From positions 1 through 62,435 of the forward strand of contig JAUVWW010000005.1 in NCBI GenBank assembly GCA_030603885.1: a stretch of DNA of 62,435 nt, given 5' to 3'. Under the pieces are notes generated by a model. It was not told the DNA's origin. It saw nothing but the letters and a program-made list of their open reading frames with translations, and did not search any database. Positions 6,380-45,187 of the stretch are shown in pieces. Origin of the DNA: a bacterium. GTDB taxonomy: Bacteria; Patescibacteriota; JABMPQ01; JAUVWW01. The translations under genes were made by a program, and so were the position numbers. Every line of letters starts with the position of its first letter. Positions within the stretch are counted from its first letter, which is position 1.

Positions 6380-7108
6380 TTACTCGTATTCCGGTATCCG
6401 AATATATTCATCCCAAATATGAAAAAGCTCTTTGGTAGCTCGGACATCATCCAGACAATATTTGGCAATTTTTAGATATTCTTTTTTCTTAAATCTATCT
6501 TTAACTTCAAGGCCAGTTATACCTTTGTCTTTTGAGCTTTCAATTCCAAAAGCTTGGCACCAAAAATGAAGATTTCCTTTCCTTCTTACTGCTCCATAAA
6601 AGCTTAGCTGATCCATGAGGTCAACATGAAAATCGCTTTTATAACGGTAAGGCATCAAATTAACAGTTGGTTTTATTTGATGAATGGCTGAGCGAATAAT
6701 AATAAAAGGACAATCAAAGCCTCGGCCATTGAAAGTAGCAAATTGGCTACAGGTTTTAATTACCCGCCAAAAATGCTCTAAAATCTCCTTTTCTGTAGCT
6801 GGCTGGAATTTAATTTCCTTTTCTTCAAAAGCCTCTATTTTCTTTTTGGGTGCTTGAAAATAGCAAGCTCCCTTTCCTTGATCTGCCTCTAAAATAGCCA
6901 AAGCCACAATTTGAGCCGTTAAAGGAGAACCAGCCAACTGATCCTTTCTTCTTTCAAACCTCTCTTCAAAACTCTCATCTGTGTCTTTATACAACTTAGC
7001 CCAGTCTTTAATGTATTCCTGAGACTTTTTATCCAACTCCTCAAAATCTTTGCCCACGGTTTCGATGTCGAAGATGAGGCGGGGGCGAGTTTGATTAATA
7101 TTAATCAT
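6380..7108 (-). CDS. RNase H-fold 3'-5' exonuclease (PolB-exonuclease-like, DEDD type)
   Basis: ExoI FDIET, ExoII NGRGFDCPF, ExoIII YCLDDVRAT. Confidence 0.7.
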   Translation of the reverse strand: MININQTRPRLIFDIETVGKDFEELDKKSQEYIKDWAKLYKDTDESFEERFERRKDQLAGSPLTAQIVALAILEADQGKGACYFQAPKKKIEAFEEKEIKFQPATEKEILEHFWRVIKTCSQFATFNGRGFDCPFIIIRSAIHQIKPTVNLMPYRYKSDFHVDLMDQLSFYGAVRRKGNLHFWCQAFGIESSKDKGITGLEVKDRFKKKEYLKIAKYCLDDVRATKELFHIWDEYIRIPEYE

Positions 7109-7153: not shown

Positions 7154-8257
7154 TTAATTTTCTTTAGCAACTCTATTTAAATAATTATAAAGAATTTCCA
7201 AAATCATTTTTCTTTGCTCTTGAATAAAATCAGCTAATCTTATTGTCTTACTATATAAAGAACTTATCTCGCTGTAGTCATAAGACAAATCTACCTTTTC
7301 AGAAAGCTCATTAAATAACTCTTTATGTAAATTATCAATGTTTTTTAAAGACTTTTTGGGTGCTTTAATTTCAATCCAAATAAGAGAAGCAGAAACATTA
7401 GCTAAAGATAAAAGAGCAATTTTCTCATTACCCTTCTTAACACCAACTTTTATATACCCCTCTTTCTCTCCTCCACTAAACCAAACTTCAAAGTTCTTAC
7501 TTGTTTTTACTTTATTATAAAAGTTTTTTATAAGATTATGAATCTCCTCATTCGTTCTATCTCTTAAAACTTTGAAATATTCTTTTTCTGTCCAATCCTT
7601 ACTACCATATGCAGTTTTTGTTTTCTGACTAGGTTTCACTCCATACAACCTTGGTGTTAAAACCTCAAGACCTTGACCTGTAAAATATGGAATTTCTAGA
7701 GCAAAAAGTTCAAAATGAAAACTCCCAGAAAGATTAATATAATCAACGATTCTCTTTAGAGGTTCATTCATCTGATCGACTGCTACAATTAGAGAAAAAT
7801 TTCCTTTTTCTAAATTCGTTGAAACTGCACTTAAAAACTGCTCCTCTGACCAATCCTTGTCTTTAATCCTCTTTTTTATCAGATTAACCAAATGATCACT
7901 GGTAATTTTCGAAACTTTTTGATCAAATTCCTCAAAACTCATTTTCCACAAAAATCCAGCATATTCAAAAATCTGCCCTATGACTTCTCTCTTTGCTTCA
8001 GCATTCGTGGCAAGCTTTGTTTCAATAATGTAAATCCTTCCTTCGGGATCGAGTCCGATAATATCACTGTTTCCAGAACCAGGTAAACCAAATTCTTTTA
8101 AAAATACACAAATTTCTTTCCTAGAAACATCAATATCTCGAAGAGGAAGAATGGAGGGATCATTATAAATTTCATTTTGCAACTGGGCTTCGTTCTTATA
8201 GGAGATTTTTGCTAATTTTCCCCATTTCTTATTTTTATTACGAAAGAGAATAGGCAT
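7154..8257 (-). CDS. NucS/DUF91-like PD-(D/E)XK nuclease domain protein with an uncharacterised C-terminal half
   Basis: GNSDIIGLDPEGRIYIIETKLATNAEAKREVIGQIFEY matches the D...E-x-K...Q..Y nuclease core of NucS/RecB-like enzymes. Last gene of the 7-gene operon. Confidence 0.55.
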   Translation of the reverse strand: MPILFRNKNKKWGKLAKISYKNEAQLQNEIYNDPSILPLRDIDVSRKEICVFLKEFGLPGSGNSDIIGLDPEGRIYIIETKLATNAEAKREVIGQIFEYAGFLWKMSFEEFDQKVSKITSDHLVNLIKKRIKDKDWSEEQFLSAVSTNLEKGNFSLIVAVDQMNEPLKRIVDYINLSGSFHFELFALEIPYFTGQGLEVLTPRLYGVKPSQKTKTAYGSKDWTEKEYFKVLRDRTNEEIHNLIKNFYNKVKTSKNFEVWFSGGEKEGYIKVGVKKGNEKIALLSLANVSASLIWIEIKAPKKSLKNIDNLHKELFNELSEKVDLSYDYSEISSLYSKTIRLADFIQEQRKMILEILYNYLNRVAKEN

Positions 8258-8298
8258 ATTTGTTCTAATTTTGAATTATTAGATATGATTTTTAAAAA

Positions 8299-8499
8299 TT
8301 AAATTCCTTTAGACTTTACAAAAGTCGAAAAACTATCTTTTGCTTCACGATACAAATTTTTTAAAATCCGATACCACACTTCTTTTACTCGTTTTGAGGT
8401 AGCCTTACGGCCACAATCCCGAATAGCCTGCTGGATTTCGTCTATGACAACCGATTGATCAATCCATTTGCATAATTTGTGATAGGTTTTTTGGTTCAT
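8299..8499 (-). CDS. Hypothetical 66-aa protein
   Basis: ORF only. Co-oriented between the TIGR02391-like gene and the nuclease gene. Confidence 0.4.
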   Translation of the reverse strand: MNQKTYHKLCKWIDQSVVIDEIQQAIRDCGRKATSKRVKEVWYRILKNLYREAKDSFSTFVKSKGI

Positions 8500-8575
8500 G
8501 GTGGATCTGTTAACTTCTGTATTAAAATGAATCAGTATTTTGAATCTTGTATTAATAAAGAAATTAGTTTCTATC

Positions 8576-9271
8576 TTATTTTTGAGCTCTTCCTAATATG
8601 GCTAGTAAACTATCAACAAAGCCACAGAACCTTAAGGCGTCTTGTCTTGTAAACCTCTCACTTAGTTCATGATGGGTCGTATCTCTAAAAGCTAACATTA
8701 GACCATTATAAATACTATGAAAGCCCCGCTGTTCAATCTTTCTATTACTAACCTTTAGTACCGCCTTAGCTGGATCGGGATTTAAAACTTTACCAACTAG
8801 ATTAACACCTACTAGATTTTTTATCCCAGACAGCTTTTTTATCCTGTCTTCGAGTACAGTTGTAGCTTCTCTAAATACCCGATCAAATTTCTTCTTAGCT
8901 CTTATCAAATCATCACATCTATCGAATAGCTCTTTATCTTGAATTAAATACTCGACAGCTAATGATATTTGAGACCTCTTTCTTTGACTTTTCCCTTTTT
9001 GGCTAATAGAAGTTTTCAATCGTGGCTGCCTTGTTGTAAAAATAGATGGAAGAGTATCTCTAACTTCTGATTGAATATTAGGAGGTAATTTTCTCTGATA
9101 TACTGCGGTCCCTATTCCTTCTTTTTTTGCCCAAAGAATTAAAAATGCCTCAGAAGAGATACCTAATTTACCTGCTTTCTTACTTACCTGCTCACGTAAA
9201 TATTTCTCTGTCTTTCCAAGTCTTTGAGCTAATTTTTTTAATAATTTCTGATCAAGTCGTGATCTAGACAT
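8576..9271 (-). CDS. Protein with a helical/HTH-like N-terminus and a TIGR02391 (Hypoth_ymh, Abi/prophage-associated)-like C-terminal domain
   Basis: The C-terminus FHSIYNGLMLAFRDTTHHELSERFTRQDALRFCGFVDSLLAIL resembles the TIGR02391 core. The start ATG is 1 nt after the stop of the upstream mini-HTH gene. Confidence 0.5.
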   Translation of the reverse strand: MSRSRLDQKLLKKLAQRLGKTEKYLREQVSKKAGKLGISSEAFLILWAKKEGIGTAVYQRKLPPNIQSEVRDTLPSIFTTRQPRLKTSISQKGKSQRKRSQISLAVEYLIQDKELFDRCDDLIRAKKKFDRVFREATTVLEDRIKKLSGIKNLVGVNLVGKVLNPDPAKAVLKVSNRKIEQRGFHSIYNGLMLAFRDTTHHELSERFTRQDALRFCGFVDSLLAILGRAQK

Positions 9272-9272
9272 A

Positions 9273-9506
9273 TCATTTTTTTCTTCGTTTTGGAGTTAAT
9301 AGAGTTCGTACACTTTGAACCGGTGCATCAAGGATTTCAGCTATATCCTTAGCGTTAAGACCAAAATCAGCTAAATAGTTAACGAATTCACCAGTACCGC
9401 GTCTGCTCTTCCCGATGAAATCTTTATTACCAAGTAGAGATCGTAAACTCAGCGAGATAAGAACACTCAATTTTTTTGAAATTGTTTCAAGTTTTTCTTT
9501 TTCCAT
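9273..9506 (-). CDS. Mini-HTH protein, paralog 4 of 4 (77 aa)
   Basis: LSVLISLSLRSLL...GLNAKDIAEILDAPVQSVRTLLTPKRRKK: an HTH followed by a basic tail. Overlaps the upstream paralog by 20 nt. Confidence 0.6.
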   Translation of the reverse strand: MEKEKLETISKKLSVLISLSLRSLLGNKDFIGKSRRGTGEFVNYLADFGLNAKDIAEILDAPVQSVRTLLTPKRRKK

Positions 9507-9705
9507 ATCGATTTCTATTTTTCTTAGAAATCTTATTAAGAATGGTTATAATCCGGCGAAGACGATTATTATCAATTTTCCCTAAAACTCTCTTTACATT
9601 ATCACTATTAAATCCTGATTTACCTAATTCTAAAATTAATAAATCTTTCAGCAGATTAGTAATAATATCCAATTTTTTACAGATTTCTTTATTTTCTGAC
9701 GTCAT
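9487..9705 (-). CDS. Mini-HTH protein, paralog 3 of 4 (72 aa)
   Basis: ITNLLKDLLILELGKSGFNSDNVKRVLGKIDNNRLRRII with a basic tail. Overlaps the upstream paralog by 17 nt. Confidence 0.55.
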   Translation of the reverse strand: MTSENKEICKKLDIITNLLKDLLILELGKSGFNSDNVKRVLGKIDNNRLRRIITILNKISKKNRNRYGKRKT

Positions 9706-9883
9706 TGTCTTTATTTTTTAAACTTTTAAAGTGTTTAACAATACGATTCACCCGATGAATATCGACCCCAAGAATTTCGCGTATCTGACGTTGAGTAAGG
9801 CCAGCTAATCCGAGCTGGACAATTAAGAGATCGCGAAGCAATTCATCGGTTGTACTTTCATTTTTCGAGTTTCTTTTCCTCAT
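9689..9883 (-). CDS. Mini-HTH protein, paralog 2 of 4 (64 aa)
   Basis: ELLRDLLIVQLGLAGLTQRQIREILGVDIHRVNRIVKHFK. Confidence 0.6.
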   Translation of the reverse strand: MRKRNSKNESTTDELLRDLLIVQLGLAGLTQRQIREILGVDIHRVNRIVKHFKSLKNKDNDVRK

Positions 9884-9887
9884 ATTT

Positions 9888-10121
9888 TTATCCTTTCTGC
9901 TTTCTGGGCTTTCTTAGTCCTGAAAGCTCTTTATTTATATATATATTAGATCGACCTAATATCTCAGCAATTTCTTTCGGCTTGAGTCCAAGGTCATTCA
10001 AAACATCGATTTGTTCCCTTAGAGTTAAGCTATCTTGATCGCGTTGATTTAACAACCTTAATAACAAAGCAACTATTACCTTAAGAAGCCTATTTGTTGA
10101 TTCTAATTGATTTTTCTGCAT
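9888..10121 (-). CDS. Mini-HTH protein, paralog 1 of 4 (77 aa)
   Basis: LLKVIVALLLRLL...GLKPKEIAEILGRSNIYINKELSGLRKPRKQKG. Confidence 0.6.
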   Translation of the reverse strand: MQKNQLESTNRLLKVIVALLLRLLNQRDQDSLTLREQIDVLNDLGLKPKEIAEILGRSNIYINKELSGLRKPRKQKG

Positions 10122-10145
10122 ATTTTATGACTTAGATCACTATTA

Positions 10146-10174
10146 ATAATAATCTAAGGTAATAAAAATGTCAA
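10146..10174 (-). promoter_or_regulatory. Proximal sigma70-type promoter of the mini-HTH operon
   Basis: Minus strand: TTGACA (10169-10174), 17 nt, TATTAT (10146-10151). About 25 nt upstream of the ATG at 10121. Confidence 0.5.
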
Positions 10175-10229
10175 ATTTTATCTCAAAATAAAGACTTTTA
10201 TTATTACCATTTTATAAATCTTATTTATC

Positions 10230-10257
10230 ATAATAGCAAACCATAATTCCCTGTCAA
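10230..10257 (-). promoter_or_regulatory. Distal sigma70-type promoter of the mini-HTH operon
   Basis: Minus strand: TTGACA (10252-10257), 16 nt, TATTAT (10230-10235). Confidence 0.5.
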
Positions 10258-10293: not shown

Positions 10294-10311
10294 TTGGCCT
10301 ACATAAGCCAA
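10294..10311. promoter_or_regulatory. 18-nt palindrome TTGGCCTACATAAGCCAA (TTGGC-N8-GCCAA)
   Basis: Perfect 5+5 inverted repeat, 36 nt upstream of the -35 at 10252-10257. A near-identical copy lies at 25213-25230. Confidence 0.55.
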
Positions 10312-10365: not shown

Positions 10366-10374
10366 TTATCCACA
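10366..10374 (+). promoter_or_regulatory. Perfect DnaA-box-like 9-mer TTATCCACA
   Basis: Exact match to the TTATNCACA consensus. Intergenic and isolated. Confidence 0.4.
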
Positions 10375-10417: not shown

Positions 10418-10460
10418 AAAATAAAAAGAGACCCGAAACTATACAAGTTTACAGGTCTCT
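10418..10460 (-). terminator. Rho-independent terminator of the 10467-11135 gene
   Basis: AGAGACC/GGTCTCT stem with an inner AAACT/AGTTT stem, then TTTTTATTTT on the minus strand. Confidence 0.6.
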
Positions 10461-10466
10461 ATAAGA

Positions 10467-11135
10467 CTAACATCCCTGTTCATTTTCGATCGTCGACATC
10501 ATATCCTCTTCCTCAAGGAATTTCTCTATACGTCCGTAGTACCGGCACAATCTTTCATCACATTCCCTATACTCTGCAACCGCTTCTGTAGTGTAAGCAA
10601 AAATCTGTTCAATTATAAAATCTCTACAGATGTGATAACTTTTACAGTTCGGGTGAAGCTGCAAAGCAGTGATACAGTAACTGACCACGGCCAGGAAATA
10701 ATAAGGATTGACATCCATCCATATACAATCCCCAAAGGCCTCTTTAGGATCATCAATGAAGGTCGCCTTATCCCCGAACTCCTCTTTGATCATCTTTGCA
10801 CAACTACTTTCTAGTTCAGGGTGTTCATCTCTGCAGAACTTTTCGGCGCTCTCTAAAATACTAGAAAGCTCATTGATGTGTTCCAGTACTTTAGTCTTAC
10901 CACTAGAGATCTCATCATCATATTCGTTAATGACAGGATCGAGATAGCGACTGAAGGGTAAGACTATCATATCGAGTCCCCGGATTTCGTCTTCCACTAA
11001 AAATGACATAGAAGAGATCCCATCTTTTATGGCTTTTGGGAATCCACCCTCCCGATTCTCTATATGCCTTCTGATGCTTTTAATTAATCTCCGGGCGGTG
11101 GTCAAAACCTTATTGGGGGTTATTTTTTTAGTCAT
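10467..11135 (-). CDS. Hypothetical acidic, Cys-rich 222-aa protein (orphan)
   Basis: Start moved to ATG 11135 (MTKKITPNK), which follows AGGAGG at a 7-nt spacing. The ORF-track start at 11195 lies upstream of that RBS. Has its own promoter and terminator. Confidence 0.6.
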   Translation of the reverse strand: MTKKITPNKVLTTARRLIKSIRRHIENREGGFPKAIKDGISSMSFLVEDEIRGLDMIVLPFSRYLDPVINEYDDEISSGKTKVLEHINELSSILESAEKFCRDEHPELESSCAKMIKEEFGDKATFIDDPKEAFGDCIWMDVNPYYFLAVVSYCITALQLHPNCKSYHICRDFIIEQIFAYTTEAVAEYRECDERLCRYYGRIEKFLEEEDMMSTIENEQGC

Positions 11136-11260
11136 ATTACACCTCCTAAAATTTCGGTTTTTTTGAACCAAGTTATAATTTTCACTAACTCCCAAAGCAA
11201 CCTATAATCTTAATTACAAGCTAATTTAGGAGTTAGTGATTGTTAAAAGAACACCAATCT

Positions 11261-13116: not shown

Positions 13117-13977
13117 ATGTATGATAATATATTATGGCGATATCTAGAAAGAGATTCATTTTGGATCTCAACAAAGACTAATTTAACAGTAAAAATGAAA
13201 AAAGATACTCTGGTTATTTTTGAAAGATTATGTAAGAAGAGAAATTGGGAATACAGACTGCCTACCAAGGCTCAAGCCAGAGGCAATCGAATTTTGGTTA
13301 TTTGTGGACCATCAGGGGTAGGAAAAACATCCTCCATCAATGGAGTATTAGGCATGAATTCTCTTCTTAATAAGATATTTAATGAGTGTGGTCGGCCCTC
13401 GGTTAAACTGGTCTATGTTCCCAGTTCTACTACTAGACCTATGCGTGAGGGAGAAAAAAATGGTTTTGACTTTAATTTTTTACCCGAGGAACAATTCCTT
13501 AGTCAAATGAAAAACAGAGATTTCTTGCTCTATTTTTCTGCTTATTCTTATCTTTATGCTATTGATGGCAAAGATTTAAAAAGAAGACTTTTAGTTTCTG
13601 ACCCTTATACTCTTTTCATCTACAATCTTAATACTCTTCAGATCGAAAAATTCAAAAGTAAATTTAAACGTCAGCCCAAAGTTATTTTCTTTAGTATTCC
13701 TTCTTTACAAGAGCTGGAGAAACGAAGGAATTTTAAAGGATCATTTAAAGAGGAAAAAGAATTACGTAAACAATCAACTAAAGAGGAGATTAGGATAGGA
13801 AAAACTATAGCTGATTTTAAAATTATTGGTAGAGATATAGAATCAAGTGTTAGAAAAGTACTTCTTTATTCTGTAGAAGAAATTATTGCTCCTAATGCTG
13901 GTATCTCCTCTAGAATAACTAGAAAGATTCTGGCCAGAATTAGGAAGGTTATACCCAAAAAGAAGAAAAAGTTTTAG
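13117..13977 (+). CDS. Guanylate-kinase-family P-loop protein, divergent paralog A with N- and C-terminal extensions
   Basis: VICGPSGVGKTS and SSTTRPMREGEKNGFDFNFL. The start codon is uncertain; an alternative ATG lies at 13195. Confidence 0.6.
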   Translation: MYDNILWRYLERDSFWISTKTNLTVKMKKDTLVIFERLCKKRNWEYRLPTKAQARGNRILVICGPSGVGKTSSINGVLGMNSLLNKIFNECGRPSVKLVYVPSSTTRPMREGEKNGFDFNFLPEEQFLSQMKNRDFLLYFSAYSYLYAIDGKDLKRRLLVSDPYTLFIYNLNTLQIEKFKSKFKRQPKVIFFSIPSLQELEKRRNFKGSFKEEKELRKQSTKEEIRIGKTIADFKIIGRDIESSVRKVLLYSVEEIIAPNAGISSRITRKILARIRKVIPKKKKKF

Positions 13978-16927: not shown

Positions 16928-17707
16928 TCAGAAATTTTTTATAATTTTTTTGGTCACTCTGGGAATTTCGTCATTAACCAAATAGGCATCATAAATGGCT
17001 GTACTTTCTCGAAGCTCTTCAGGAGCTCTGGCCAAACGTTTCTCTATTTCTTCAAAGGGAGCTCCTTTCCAGGAAGTTCTAATCCGAAAGCAAAGCTCTT
17101 CAAAGGAAGGAGGAAGAATAAATAGAGAAAGATGAGCAACTTTTCTAAACTCTTCCTTCTGTTCTAGCCCTCTTAACGATTGAATACTTTTTTCTAGGTA
17201 GAATTTCTCTTTAGAGGAAACTCCTTCTAGAAACTTATCTCTCAAAAATCCATGCCAGGCTCCATGAGTTTTTCCGTATTGGAAGAATCTCCCTTCTTTT
17301 TTCATCCTTTCAAATTCTTTTTCACCTACAAAGAAATAATCTATTCCCTCTTTCTCTCCTGCCCGAGGAGATCGGGTAGTCACGTTAGGAAGAAAAAGGA
17401 TGTTTGTCTTTTTTTCTAGCTCACTTTCAATTGCTCCCTTACCTACCCCAGAAGGACCAGAAATAACTAAAAACCGATTTTTTCCCTTTTTCTCTTTTAA
17501 CCTGCCTTCTGTAGCTTCTTCCAAAAGATAAGGAGCTTTTTCTATTAATTCCCTTTCTTCTAATTTGGGAAGTTCTTTTCCTATTTCTTGGTGTTTTGAT
17601 TTTAAGACTTGAATCAGCGTCTCATTCCAAGCTTTTTCTAGATTTTCTAATTTTTCCCTTTGCTCTTTGGAGCCTTCAAATTGTAAATCTAGTCTCTTTT
17701 CTCGCAT
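16928..17707 (-). CDS. Guanylate-kinase-family protein, paralog B, with a roughly 80-aa N-terminal extension
   Basis: VISGPSGVGKG and NVTTRSPRAGEKEGIDYFFV. Confidence 0.65.
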   Translation of the reverse strand: MREKRLDLQFEGSKEQREKLENLEKAWNETLIQVLKSKHQEIGKELPKLEERELIEKAPYLLEEATEGRLKEKKGKNRFLVISGPSGVGKGAIESELEKKTNILFLPNVTTRSPRAGEKEGIDYFFVGEKEFERMKKEGRFFQYGKTHGAWHGFLRDKFLEGVSSKEKFYLEKSIQSLRGLEQKEEFRKVAHLSLFILPPSFEELCFRIRTSWKGAPFEEIEKRLARAPEELRESTAIYDAYLVNDEIPRVTKKIIKNF

Positions 17708-25310: not shown

Positions 25311-25319
25311 TTATCCACA
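25311..25319 (+). promoter_or_regulatory. Perfect DnaA-box-like 9-mer TTATCCACA
   Basis: Exact 9-mer, intergenic. Followed by TTTAAGCTAA, similar to the sequence after the 10366 copy. Confidence 0.4.
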
Positions 25320-42895: not shown

Positions 42896-44233
42896 CTATC
42901 GCAACAGCGTAGTCACTTGGGCTGCTGCCCAATTAATAGCTTCTTCTGCCTTTTGTTCTCCCAAAACTACTTTTTCAATCATATCTATTATAACGCCCTC
43001 TGTCTGTGAAGGATTTTTCCCTCTAAACCAATTTTTAGCAGTTAGAGCTTGGTTGGCAAAAACAGAAAGTTTGGGATCTTCCTGTTGAAGTTCGATAACA
43101 TCATAACGGGAGGCAGGACGGCCAGTGGCTTCGCAATACTTAGCCACCATATCCTTTGAAGACAAAAAGGTCAAAAAGTCCCAAGCCACCTCTTTAGCTT
43201 GACTTTGGTTAGATACTACCATTCCCCAATAATTAGCAAAGTTAACTTCCTTAGGCATACCCTCAATCTGAGGAACTGGAGTAATACTATAATTTAACTT
43301 AGGAGCTCGAGCCTCAATTGTAAGTCCGTGATAAGAATAGCTAAACATTAAAGCTACCTTTTCATCAATAAAAGCATCAATAGAATGAGACAAGGTTGGA
43401 TTCCAAGTGTATACTTTCTTTTTTGGATTAGCAAAGTCTGTATAAAATACTAAAGCCTCTTTTCCAGGATTAAATCTCTCTCCGGTCTGTTCAGTTACTT
43501 CTTGGTTAAATGTAGCCTGAGTCCGCTCCTCATTTATTATCTGAGTTCCATTTTGGAGCATCAAAAGACCTAGGATATCAGCAGTCCGGTTTACATTTCT
43601 AGCACAACCCAAGGCTGCTCCAGATTGAGTAATATTTCCTAACTCATCAAATTTAGTTAGCTTCTCCACATATTCTTTAAACTTTTCCCAATTTTGAGGC
43701 GGAGAAGTATAGTGAGCTGATTTTAGAAGATCTTCATTCCAGTATAAAGCTAGGGTATCTACCGATAAAGCCACCCCATAGATCTCACTTTTATCCACAA
43801 AATCATCAGCTACTACATCAACAAAAGTCTCTTCAAAGTCAGGAAGAGCTTTGAGAGAATCGGGCAAGGGAGTCAGTTTTTCCATATGTTTTGGAAGCCA
43901 GGTATTATGAATCATCCAAATATCAGGACCACGGCCGGCTGCTAGAGACTCTGTAACTATATCCTCATACTCTGAGTATTCCCATTTCTTATAGGTAATG
44001 CTTACATTAGGATTAATCTTGCGATATTCATCAATCAGAGGCTGAAAGACAGATGAATCATCCCAAAGCCCCCAAAAGGAAAGATTGGCTGAAGGCTGAG
44101 TAGGTGTTGGTGTTGGGGGTGGTGTAGGAGTTGGTTGGCAGCCAGGACAGGCTTGACCAGTAGTGATGAAAACAACAACTAAGCTTATAAATATGGCTAG
44201 GGATAATTTTTTAGATAGATTTGTTTTAAACAT
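42896..44233 (-). CDS. Extracellular solute-binding protein (ABC family 1, sugar type), lipoprotein-like, with no adjacent permease or ATPase
   Basis: Signal/lipobox-like region ...TTGQAC. Pro/Thr linker. SBP-like body. Confidence 0.7.
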   Translation of the reverse strand: MFKTNLSKKLSLAIFISLVVVFITTGQACPGCQPTPTPPPTPTPTQPSANLSFWGLWDDSSVFQPLIDEYRKINPNVSITYKKWEYSEYEDIVTESLAAGRGPDIWMIHNTWLPKHMEKLTPLPDSLKALPDFEETFVDVVADDFVDKSEIYGVALSVDTLALYWNEDLLKSAHYTSPPQNWEKFKEYVEKLTKFDELGNITQSGAALGCARNVNRTADILGLLMLQNGTQIINEERTQATFNQEVTEQTGERFNPGKEALVFYTDFANPKKKVYTWNPTLSHSIDAFIDEKVALMFSYSYHGLTIEARAPKLNYSITPVPQIEGMPKEVNFANYWGMVVSNQSQAKEVAWDFLTFLSSKDMVAKYCEATGRPASRYDVIELQQEDPKLSVFANQALTAKNWFRGKNPSQTEGVIIDMIEKVVLGEQKAEEAINWAAAQVTTLLR

Positions 44234-45178: not shown

Positions 45179-45187
45179 TGTGGATAA
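45179..45187 (-). promoter_or_regulatory. Perfect DnaA-box-like 9-mer (TTATCCACA on the minus strand)
   Basis: The plus strand reads TGTGGATAA. It lies about 30 nt upstream of the galU ATG. Confidence 0.35.

Follow-up and report, generated by a model that had tools for sequence, protein, structure and literature searches.

A 62,435-nt stretch (positions 1-62,435) of contig JAUVWW010000005.1 of a Patescibacteriota genome (assembly GCA_030603885.1), called the window below, carries on its minus strand a compact block of genes between positions 7154 and 10257. Comparison with related loci indicates that the conserved unit of this block is a five-gene cassette (8576-10257, promoters included) in which four very small helix-turn-helix proteins (mini-HTHs) are encoded directly upstream of a 231-aa protein, itself composed of a helical N-terminal domain (NTD) and a Hypoth_Ymh HEPN domain. 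Judging from the homologues, the same chassis (promoter, ordered mini-HTH array, and NTD) recurs across phyla with exchangeable effectors, which are modular and of predicted immune or toxin types. That the cassette would operate as a self-regulated toxin unit, following a toxin-antitoxin (TA) or abortive-infection logic, seems to us somewhat better than an even chance. The first-pass annotation had instead proposed a seven-gene unit that also took in a 66-aa open reading frame (ORF) and a 367-aa nuclease gene, both of which are absent from all of the ~85 related cassettes. The best reading of the region as a whole is a two-system mini defense island consisting of the cassette and the nuclease.

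The seven ORFs (7154-10121, all on the minus strand) and their junctions were found as first annotated. The mini-HTH genes lie at 9888-10121 (77 aa), 9689-9883 (64 aa), 9487-9705 (72 aa), and 9273-9506 (77 aa), with a 4-nt gap between the first two, a 17-nt overlap between the second and third, and a 20-nt overlap between the third and fourth; the stop codon of the fourth is 1 nt from the ATG of the 231-aa gene (8576-9271). The GC content of the module is 30-33%, compared to about 36-38% around it.

The conservation of this arrangement was surveyed by locus scans anchored on Ymh in GTDB species genomes and on the NTD in Joint Genome Institute (JGI) metagenomes, in which ORFs were called around the anchors and searched with a hidden Markov model (HMM) built from 16 mini-HTH seeds, a procedure that gives conservative array counts. 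The 231-aa protein has at least 249 full-length homologues (50-79% identity) in the candidate phyla radiation (CPR), Woesearchaeota, Gemmatimonadota, Omnitrophota, and other groups, and the first homologue contexts examined showed four to five small genes directly upstream. Altogether, one to five mini-HTH genes stand directly 5′ of an NTD gene in about 85 related loci, which represent at least 10 phyla. The scans yielded 83 unique NTD proteins, 65 of which have at least 300 nt of sequence beyond the array, and 55 of these 65 are directly preceded by one to five mini-HTH genes on the same strand (one gene in 8 loci, two in 16, three in 18, four in 9, and five in 4). The array genes are tightly packed (median gap of 4 nt, with overlaps at 37 of 150 junctions) and encode proteins with a median length of 65 aa, while several apparent zero-array NTD loci proved to be counting artifacts, caused by a gap of ~170 nt, by one intervening gene, or by an array lying ~400 nt off. 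It is the NTD, not the HEPN domain, that the array accompanies, because NTD-only matches carry arrays and HEPN-only loci from Dehalococcoidia carry none. Thus, as to the conservation of the small ORFs and gene order in relatives, the mini-HTH genes and the 231-aa gene are kept, whereas the 66-aa ORF and the nuclease are not; as in type II TA systems, small DNA-binding genes lie directly upstream of, and are coupled with, a predicted toxin gene.

The C-terminal part of the 231-aa protein (residues 112-224; nt 8600-8938) matches Hypoth_Ymh (PF09509) with 54.2 bits against a gathering score of 25 (E=1.6e-14), and Ymh has been placed among the HEPN families (Anantharaman et al. 2013, PMC3710099). 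The earlier suggestion of a TIGR02391/Hypoth_ymh-like C-terminus therefore holds for Hypoth_Ymh but not for the curated NCBIfam model TIGR02391, to which the score was 31.3 bits against a cut-off of 39.45 (E=1.8e-7); by these scores, the protein is related to TIGR02391 yet outside the curated family boundary. It also matches the PADLOC model PD-Lambda-3_B (7e-7). The Rx4H motif (R196-DTTH-H201; nt 8669-8686) has its residues R196, H200, and H201 invariant in 25 homologues, which indicates an intact HEPN RNase domain with predicted activity. In the AlphaFold2 (AF2) model (predicted local distance difference test [pLDDT] of 82), a disordered linker joins five short helices to a helical HEPN bundle, and a Foldseek search of PDB with the whole model gave nothing useful, the best relevant match being the HEPN protein 1wwp (E=2).

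The first-pass annotation had described this gene product as an HTH protein. However, no HTH is demonstrable at its N-terminus, which forms a distinct, conserved, adaptor-like domain of ~75 residues (nt 9047-9271) and is, from its conserved residues and its fusions to effectors, a candidate adaptor or docking domain. Its consensus is RLDxxLLxKLxxKTGKxEKYLREQISKRAxRLGISSEAALILWAK, with Y24, R26, E27, and Q28 invariant. In a profile search of 1.84 billion representative proteins, the domain was found in just 161 clusters, always at the N-terminus of proteins of no more than 276 aa. The possibility that the NTD is a divergent mini-HTH was rejected (hhalign probability of 0.5%), and its weak homeodomain-like matches (E of 0.06-0.7) are a lead only. 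No significant match to the NTD profile was found among PDB sequences, nor was there any PADLOC match or above-threshold Pfam match.

What follows the NTD is variable. Among 56 full-length members, the C-terminal domain is Hypoth_Ymh in 29, a Swt1-like HEPN domain in 9, a CAP12/Pycsar TIR domain in 3, TIR_2 in 3, a pPIWI-associated nuclease (pP_pnuc_1) in 2, and GGDEF in 1, with further domains as single cases. The PADLOC models that match NTD proteins (PD-Lambda-3_B, PDC-M34B, PDC-S35, ThsB/spbK TIR, and Aga_Nuclease) cover the effector parts only; no PADLOC model matches the NTD or the mini-HTHs significantly, and the other matches, to PDC-M64B/C and M69A, are weak (1e-3 to 1e-2). A CPR-wide variant has an array of 74, 57, 78, and 57 aa followed by a 239-aa protein with a divergent NTD (hhalign probability of 96.2%, E=2.4e-9) and a weakly DUF5677-like C-terminus.

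Some loci (cited here by our L numbers) depart from the simple plan. In L019 (4904-5965) and L064 (64-771), a SIR2_2-domain gene separates the mini-HTH array from the NTD-Ymh gene, so that one array is followed by two candidate effectors. Three acidobacterial loci (L014 6717-7925, L017 6713-7797, and L022 6730-8172) have a second conserved trio downstream of the Ymh gene, made up of a D-type mini-HTH (~62 aa; subfamilies are defined below), a 95-aa winged-helix (wHTH) protein, and a ~300-aa protein with no Pfam match. L006 (3869-7644) encodes two NTD-type proteins, a Ymh protein of 237 aa and a DUF5677-like one of 235 aa, with four mini-HTH genes interspersed and the gene for an unknown 364-aa protein after them; LexA, a 278-aa protein, and a Dam-like methyltransferase are encoded upstream of this cassette.

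The four small proteins of the window are paralogues, as first noted (pairwise identity of 29-37%), and they belong to old subfamilies kept in a conserved order; a recent tandem duplication is ruled out. Clustering gave subfamilies A (56 members), B (41), C (39), D (19), E (10), and F (5). The adjacent pairs AC, BA, and DA were counted 29, 20, and 11 times, respectively, and the reverse orders were near 0. The order E≤B≤D≤A≤C/F is kept in 47 of 54 multi-gene arrays and was reached by none of 2000 within-array shuffles, a result that is descriptive and no strict test, since the rank was derived from the same arrays and the loci are related. Common architectures are AC, BAC, DAC, EAC, EBDAC, BAF, and BBA. 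The window array reads B-A-C-B, as it does in the Paceibacterota locus L036, whose NTD protein bears a different HEPN domain. By family HMM and clustering, the first window protein (E=1e-23) is a long form of subfamily B with an extra helix, and its orthologues occupy position 1 of the array in L003, L004, L126, and L134; the second belongs to subfamily A and is the best-conserved member, with hundreds of 57-aa CPR proteins being 70-85% identical to it; the third falls in subfamily C; and the fourth is a B protein of the B′ type (C-terminal end ...SVRTLLTPKRRKK) with orthologues in L036, L126, and L134.

No single Pfam family matches the mini-HTHs above its gathering score. Their matches to HTH models are sub-threshold only (HTH_23 at 6e-5 for the 64-aa protein, and more weakly Sigma70_r4_2, MarR_2, and KorB), and the family profile matches the recognition HTH of CAP/CRP with E~1e-3. 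The short subfamilies are three-helix HTH proteins with basic tails, so that the HTH and basic tail first described are confirmed, while the "N-terminal leucine-rich helix" is not a separate element but helix 1 of the HTH. Weak matches to the HTH models of IS1, IS630, and ISL3 were also obtained, and JGI labels some A-type homologues "transposase(-like)," which raises the question of whether insertion sequences are the source of the small ORFs, as remnants or as accessory HTH ORFs. We give this explanation next to no credence: neither a transposase catalytic ORF nor terminal repeats adjoin any array, and a multi-gene order, operators, and a terminal effector gene are unlike insertion sequences.

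Two tandem sigma-70-like promoters lie upstream on the minus strand, in agreement with the first-pass annotation, each with 11 of 12 matches: a distal one (10257-10230, -35 box at 10257-10252) and a proximal one (10174-10146, -35 box at 10169-10174). The proximal -35 box is flanked by the arms of GGTAAT-N39-ATTACC (10158-10163 and 10203-10208), which matches the window once where 0.01 matches would be expected, occurs directly upstream of the array in all 14 of the (mutually related) CPR loci L126-L139, and has one further match among 139 loci. Alignment with diverged CPR cassettes showed as shared blocks the distal TTGACAGGG, the AATAAGAT block, and the GGTAAT/ATTACC arms around the proximal TTGACA, while the sequence between the arms varies. 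A window-specific palindrome, CCTTAGAT-N14-ATCTAAGT (10130-10159), lies over the proximal -10 box, is not kept in L134 or L126, and is of uncertain meaning. Another palindrome, CTAA[TC]G-N8-20-C[GA]TTAG, recurs in cassettes of the Acidobacteriota type with a B gene at the head of the array; all 16 of its matches in 904 kb of fetched sequence fall 47-186 nt upstream of the array start, and the copies are often paired ~80 nt apart, with the proximal one overlapping the -10 box (CTAATGGTATAAT). We regard this as good indirect evidence that the mini-HTHs bind their own promoters at the predicted operators. The operator candidate named earlier, a palindrome near 10294, is present but weak (12-nt arms at 83% complementarity) and not conserved in relatives, and it was rejected in favor of the conserved elements at 10158-10208. 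The DnaA-box 9-mer reported upstream is a perfect match (10366-10374) and was rejected as a sign of an origin, being an isolated single box. Three other perfect copies of this 9-mer (TTATCCACA) are dispersed over the window (25311-25319, 43791-43799, and 45179-45187); four were found against 0.65 expected, a number reached in none of 100 shuffles.

These promoter elements bear directly on the main rival explanation, in which the mini-HTHs are transcription controllers only, acting like the controller proteins (C-proteins) of restriction-modification (R-M) systems in a multi-step timing cascade, so that the effector, and perhaps a neighboring R-M or restriction gene, would be timed by them; the effector would not be neutralized through protein contact and would be triggered otherwise. 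Predicted operators over promoters, a true HTH fold resembling CAP/CRP, and a high conservation that suits constraints from both DNA and partners are all what such controllers would show; CPR cassettes follow type II R-M systems, several of which have an HTH_3 C-protein of their own, and the terminal gene of L126 lacks the NTD. We nevertheless consider it unlikely, though worth serious thought, that this is the whole function, since it leaves unexplained both a conserved NTD on otherwise unrelated effectors and the tight translational coupling with the effector gene, and since the minimal systems of one mini-HTH plus one NTD-effector resemble two-gene TA pairs.

The surroundings of the cassette vary among loci and include adjoining transporter genes, HsdS/HsdM or Dam-like methyltransferases, and an integrase with a PIN/RHH TA pair. 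In each of the 14 CPR contexts returned, a type II R-M system immediately precedes the cassette, and it looks as if R-M modules have been swapped at a fixed site upstream of it. Of 53 other NTD loci, 7 had a methyltransferase-like ORF no more than 5 kb away in a crude regex screen, which is a hint only. From these neighborhoods, the cassette appears to behave as a compact mobile insert, often near restriction genes. At the level of individual loci, an identical 57-aa A-type mini-HTH with a near-identical array (L126-L139) was seen to follow directly on at least four different sets of type II R-M genes, namely, C-protein + N6_N4 methyltransferase + HNH, C-protein + methyltransferase + a 372-aa protein, methyltransferase + a MutH-like protein, and a BsaWI-like protein + methyltransferase (for example, L132 267-2983, L133 1353-3554, L136 144-1573, and L137 139-1486). 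In L120/L121 (7757-8714), the insert is a cassette of one mini-HTH and a Ymh protein, which separates a Bmp substrate-binding gene from its ABC transporter genes, with FtsK nearby, as in the window.

Such mobility would also be expected if the cassette were purely a selfish addiction or stabilization module for islands and R-M cassettes, with no anti-phage role. The insertion inside the Bmp-ABC transporter operon, the adjacent integrase and PIN/RHH TA pair, the identical A-type protein beside at least four R-M gene sets, and a phyletic spread that is patchy at high identity can all be read in this way. Yet the effectors (TIR, SIR2, Swt1/Ymh HEPN, Schlafen, and pPIWI nuclease) are typical of immunity, the cassette was not found on plasmids or phages in the databases searched (IMG/VR, PLSDB, and INPHARED), and addiction and abortive infection can coexist. 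We judge a purely selfish role to be distinctly improbable.

The remaining part of the block is formed by the 66-aa ORF (8299-8499) and the 367-aa gene (7154-8257), both on the minus strand. The 66-aa ORF lies outside the conserved cassette and has no family match and no homologue in any fetched locus. The description of the 367-aa protein as a NucS-like PD-(D/E)XK nuclease was borne out by its conserved core motifs and by structure comparison. Across the 17 homologues found, E55, D65, E79-x-K81, Q95, and Y99 are conserved, giving a PD-(D/E)XK core with a RecB-like QxxxY (nt 7961-8065), and the best PDB matches of the AF2 model (pLDDT of 81) in Foldseek were NucS of P. abyssi (2vld; probability of 1.00, E=3e-3) and EndoMS (5gke; probability of 0.99). 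There was no Pfam match, nothing significant in a profile search of PDB sequences, and only 11.2 bits against a cut-off of 216 for the NCBIfam equivalog NF003270, so that the protein is not NucS proper. In PADLOC, it matches PDC-S11 with E=2.7e-14 (residues 10-233, model positions 12-216 of 358) and PDC-S18 with 6e-8. The ~150 C-terminal residues form an alpha/beta domain in the AF2 model, with no significant PDB match. PDC-S11 has been renamed "Madara," a single-gene, modification-dependent defense of E. coli with an N-terminal NucS-like nuclease, inactivated by D63A, and an EVE-like domain at the C-terminus; the E. coli ECOR34 Madara protein is the only one for which restriction of modified (T-even) phage DNA has been shown (bioRxiv 10.64898/2026.09.05.749240). 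These similarities indicate that the 367-aa protein is a distant Madara relative with the same N-terminal enzyme, and its gene is best seen as an independent, presumptive type IV-style restriction gene.

Whether the nuclease nevertheless works with the cassette, so that all seven genes form one functional system as initially proposed, can be weighed from its position and its relatives. The seven genes are on the same strand, separated at this end by gaps of 76 and 41 nt with no terminator-like site between genes; cassettes often adjoin restriction genes; and in L003, the closest relative of the cassette, a NucS_C-like gene is not far off. The 257-aa product of that gene was considered as an orthologous partner and rejected, as it has no similarity to the window nuclease and is encoded on the other side of the cassette. 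Against joint function, the nuclease and the 66-aa ORF are both missing from every other cassette locus, and PDC-S11/Madara functions as a single gene. The expected co-occurrence of mini-HTH arrays with NucS-like genes did not appear either: the nuclease homologues stand in unrelated contexts, one beside a UvrD fragment and another beside IS66/IS3 transposases and a resolvase, neither with Ymh or small HTH genes nearby. The seven-gene reading thus looks largely refuted at the level of conservation and is, in our estimation, very unlikely. The closest nuclease homologue (L117 108-1192, 64% identity) changes frame after about residue 285, which reflects either a frameshift or an assembly error. 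The preferred combination of a cassette and a separate nuclease in one island fits both the R-M adjacency of the CPR relatives and the 2013 proposal of Ymh-type HEPN proteins as a back-up for restriction systems (PMC3710099).

Returning to the five-gene cassette as a self-regulated toxin unit, its mode of action may be akin to that of a TA module, of type II or omega-epsilon-zeta style, or of an abortive-infection module and could involve the following steps: (i) one or more mini-HTHs would bind the upstream operators and repress the operon, (ii) a mini-HTH hetero-oligomer would hold the effector inactive through the NTD, and (iii) loss or titration of the labile small proteins would free the RNase and stop the cell. 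Possible triggers include phage shut-off, failure of a neighboring restriction system, and loss of the island. A broader claim can be made, more tentatively and with the balance tilting against it: that we are dealing with a new class of immune or TA system, in which up to five ancient mini-HTHs sit on operators, probably as a heteromer, and steer exchangeable effectors via the NTD, serving as a back-up to restriction, especially in CPR bacteria and DPANN archaea.

Several observations weigh against the toxin-unit model. In L126, the array precedes a wHTH + Schlafen/AlbA_2 protein that has no NTD. The mini-HTHs, above all subfamily A, are unusually conserved for antitoxins or sensors (70-85% identity within CPR and about 50% across phyla), and a simple TA model leaves the need for up to five paralogues unexplained. 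The usual partners of classical HEPN toxins are MNT antitoxins rather than HTH proteins. Many cassette loci lie among housekeeping genes and not in clear defense islands; the NTD and A-type mini-HTHs were not found in IMG/VR, and the 231-aa Ymh protein had no tblastn match in PLSDB or INPHARED. Because the related loci lack phylogenetic independence, the counts given above overstate the support. Toxicity, neutralization, and phage defense by cassette members are predictions from sequence, and contact between the mini-HTHs and the NTD is something we infer only.

Within the window, the block lies among housekeeping genes, with genes for RodZ-like, FtsK, and PolB-exo-like exonuclease proteins on one side and an orphan 242-aa ORF followed by genes for an RRM protein, PGI, and PFK on the other. 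The description of a defense-type insertion between housekeeping genes is thus upheld, as is the absence of an integrase or transposase near the module in the window annotation; no tRNA or Rfam RNA adjoins it. The orphan ORF (10467-11195, minus strand, TTG start) is directly upstream of the cassette, has no family match and no homologue in related loci, and is associated with a terminator-like hairpin at about 10427-10460. On the other side, the stand-alone PolB-exonuclease-like/RNase_H_2 3′-5′ exonuclease gene (6380-7108, minus strand) begins 45 nt downstream of the nuclease gene on the same strand. Farther away, two guanylate-kinase-domain paralogues with long N-terminal extensions are encoded less than 4 kb apart (13117-13977, plus strand, and 16928-17707, minus strand).

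Few defense mechanisms have been characterized in CPR bacteria and DPANN archaea. If the proposed reading is correct, the cassette would represent an unrecognized toxin or defense design, in which ordered tiny HTH paralogues and an adaptor let diverse effectors plug into one regulatory chassis. CPR, Acidobacteriota, and further uncultured groups, in which immunity is little understood, would gain a characteristic defense or addiction system, and the "second-line" HEPN toxins linked to R-M would have a concrete case that can be tested, one in which well-defined operators and proteins of 55-80 aa make for easy biochemistry. The window nuclease, for its part, extends the Madara family far beyond Enterobacteria, to CPR.

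Multi-component TA systems with separate repressors are represented by omega-epsilon-zeta and paaR2-paaA2-parE2. Compared to these and to type II TA systems in general, the cassette appears similar in having small DNA-binding genes 5′ of, and coupled to, a predicted toxic enzyme gene, palindromes at the promoter, and a compact, mobile form. It differs in its up to five ordered HTH paralogues, in the adaptor-like NTD on the toxin, and in the exchangeable toxin domain, and neutralization is only presumed for it. Compared to the C-proteins of R-M systems, the mini-HTHs are likewise small HTH proteins with palindromic operators (predicted here) at promoters and R-M genes as neighbors; in contrast, C-proteins are single HTH_3/Xre proteins, whereas the cassettes encode one to five CAP-like HTH proteins (median of 65 aa) with no HTH_3 signature, and the array precedes a toxin gene instead of a restriction endonuclease gene. 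Ymh HEPN genes are known from R-M operons, where a second-line suicidal RNase role has been proposed (Anantharaman et al. 2013, PMC3710099); the cassette has the same HEPN family, an intact Rx4H motif, and an association with restriction genes in common with them, while neither the NTD nor mini-HTH arrays are mentioned in that survey.

The comparison with other defense systems is confined to single parts. With component B of PD-Lambda-3, PDC-M34B, PDC-S35, and ThsB-type effectors (PADLOC), the NTD proteins share the C-terminal effector region only. With Madara, the 367-aa protein shares the N-terminal NucS-like PD-(D/E)XK nuclease, including the catalytic Asp (D63 in Madara, corresponding to D65 here), and the setting of a single gene adjoining other defense genes; it differs in that the PDC-S11 model leaves its C-terminal domain (about 220-367) uncovered and in that its subfamily is rare (17 matches). 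Literature on TIGR02391, Hypoth_Ymh, Ymh with HEPN and HTH, and PD-Lambda-3 gave no description of such an array. The first-pass statement that no described system combines an array with a TIGR02391-like protein is in line with this, there being no PADLOC model, no above-threshold Pfam match for the array or NTD, and no such system in the literature found. The nuclease is therefore a new but distant member of a known family, and the Ymh domain is already known; the chassis of array and NTD, in turn, has a real chance of proving to be a distinct class once its mechanism is known.

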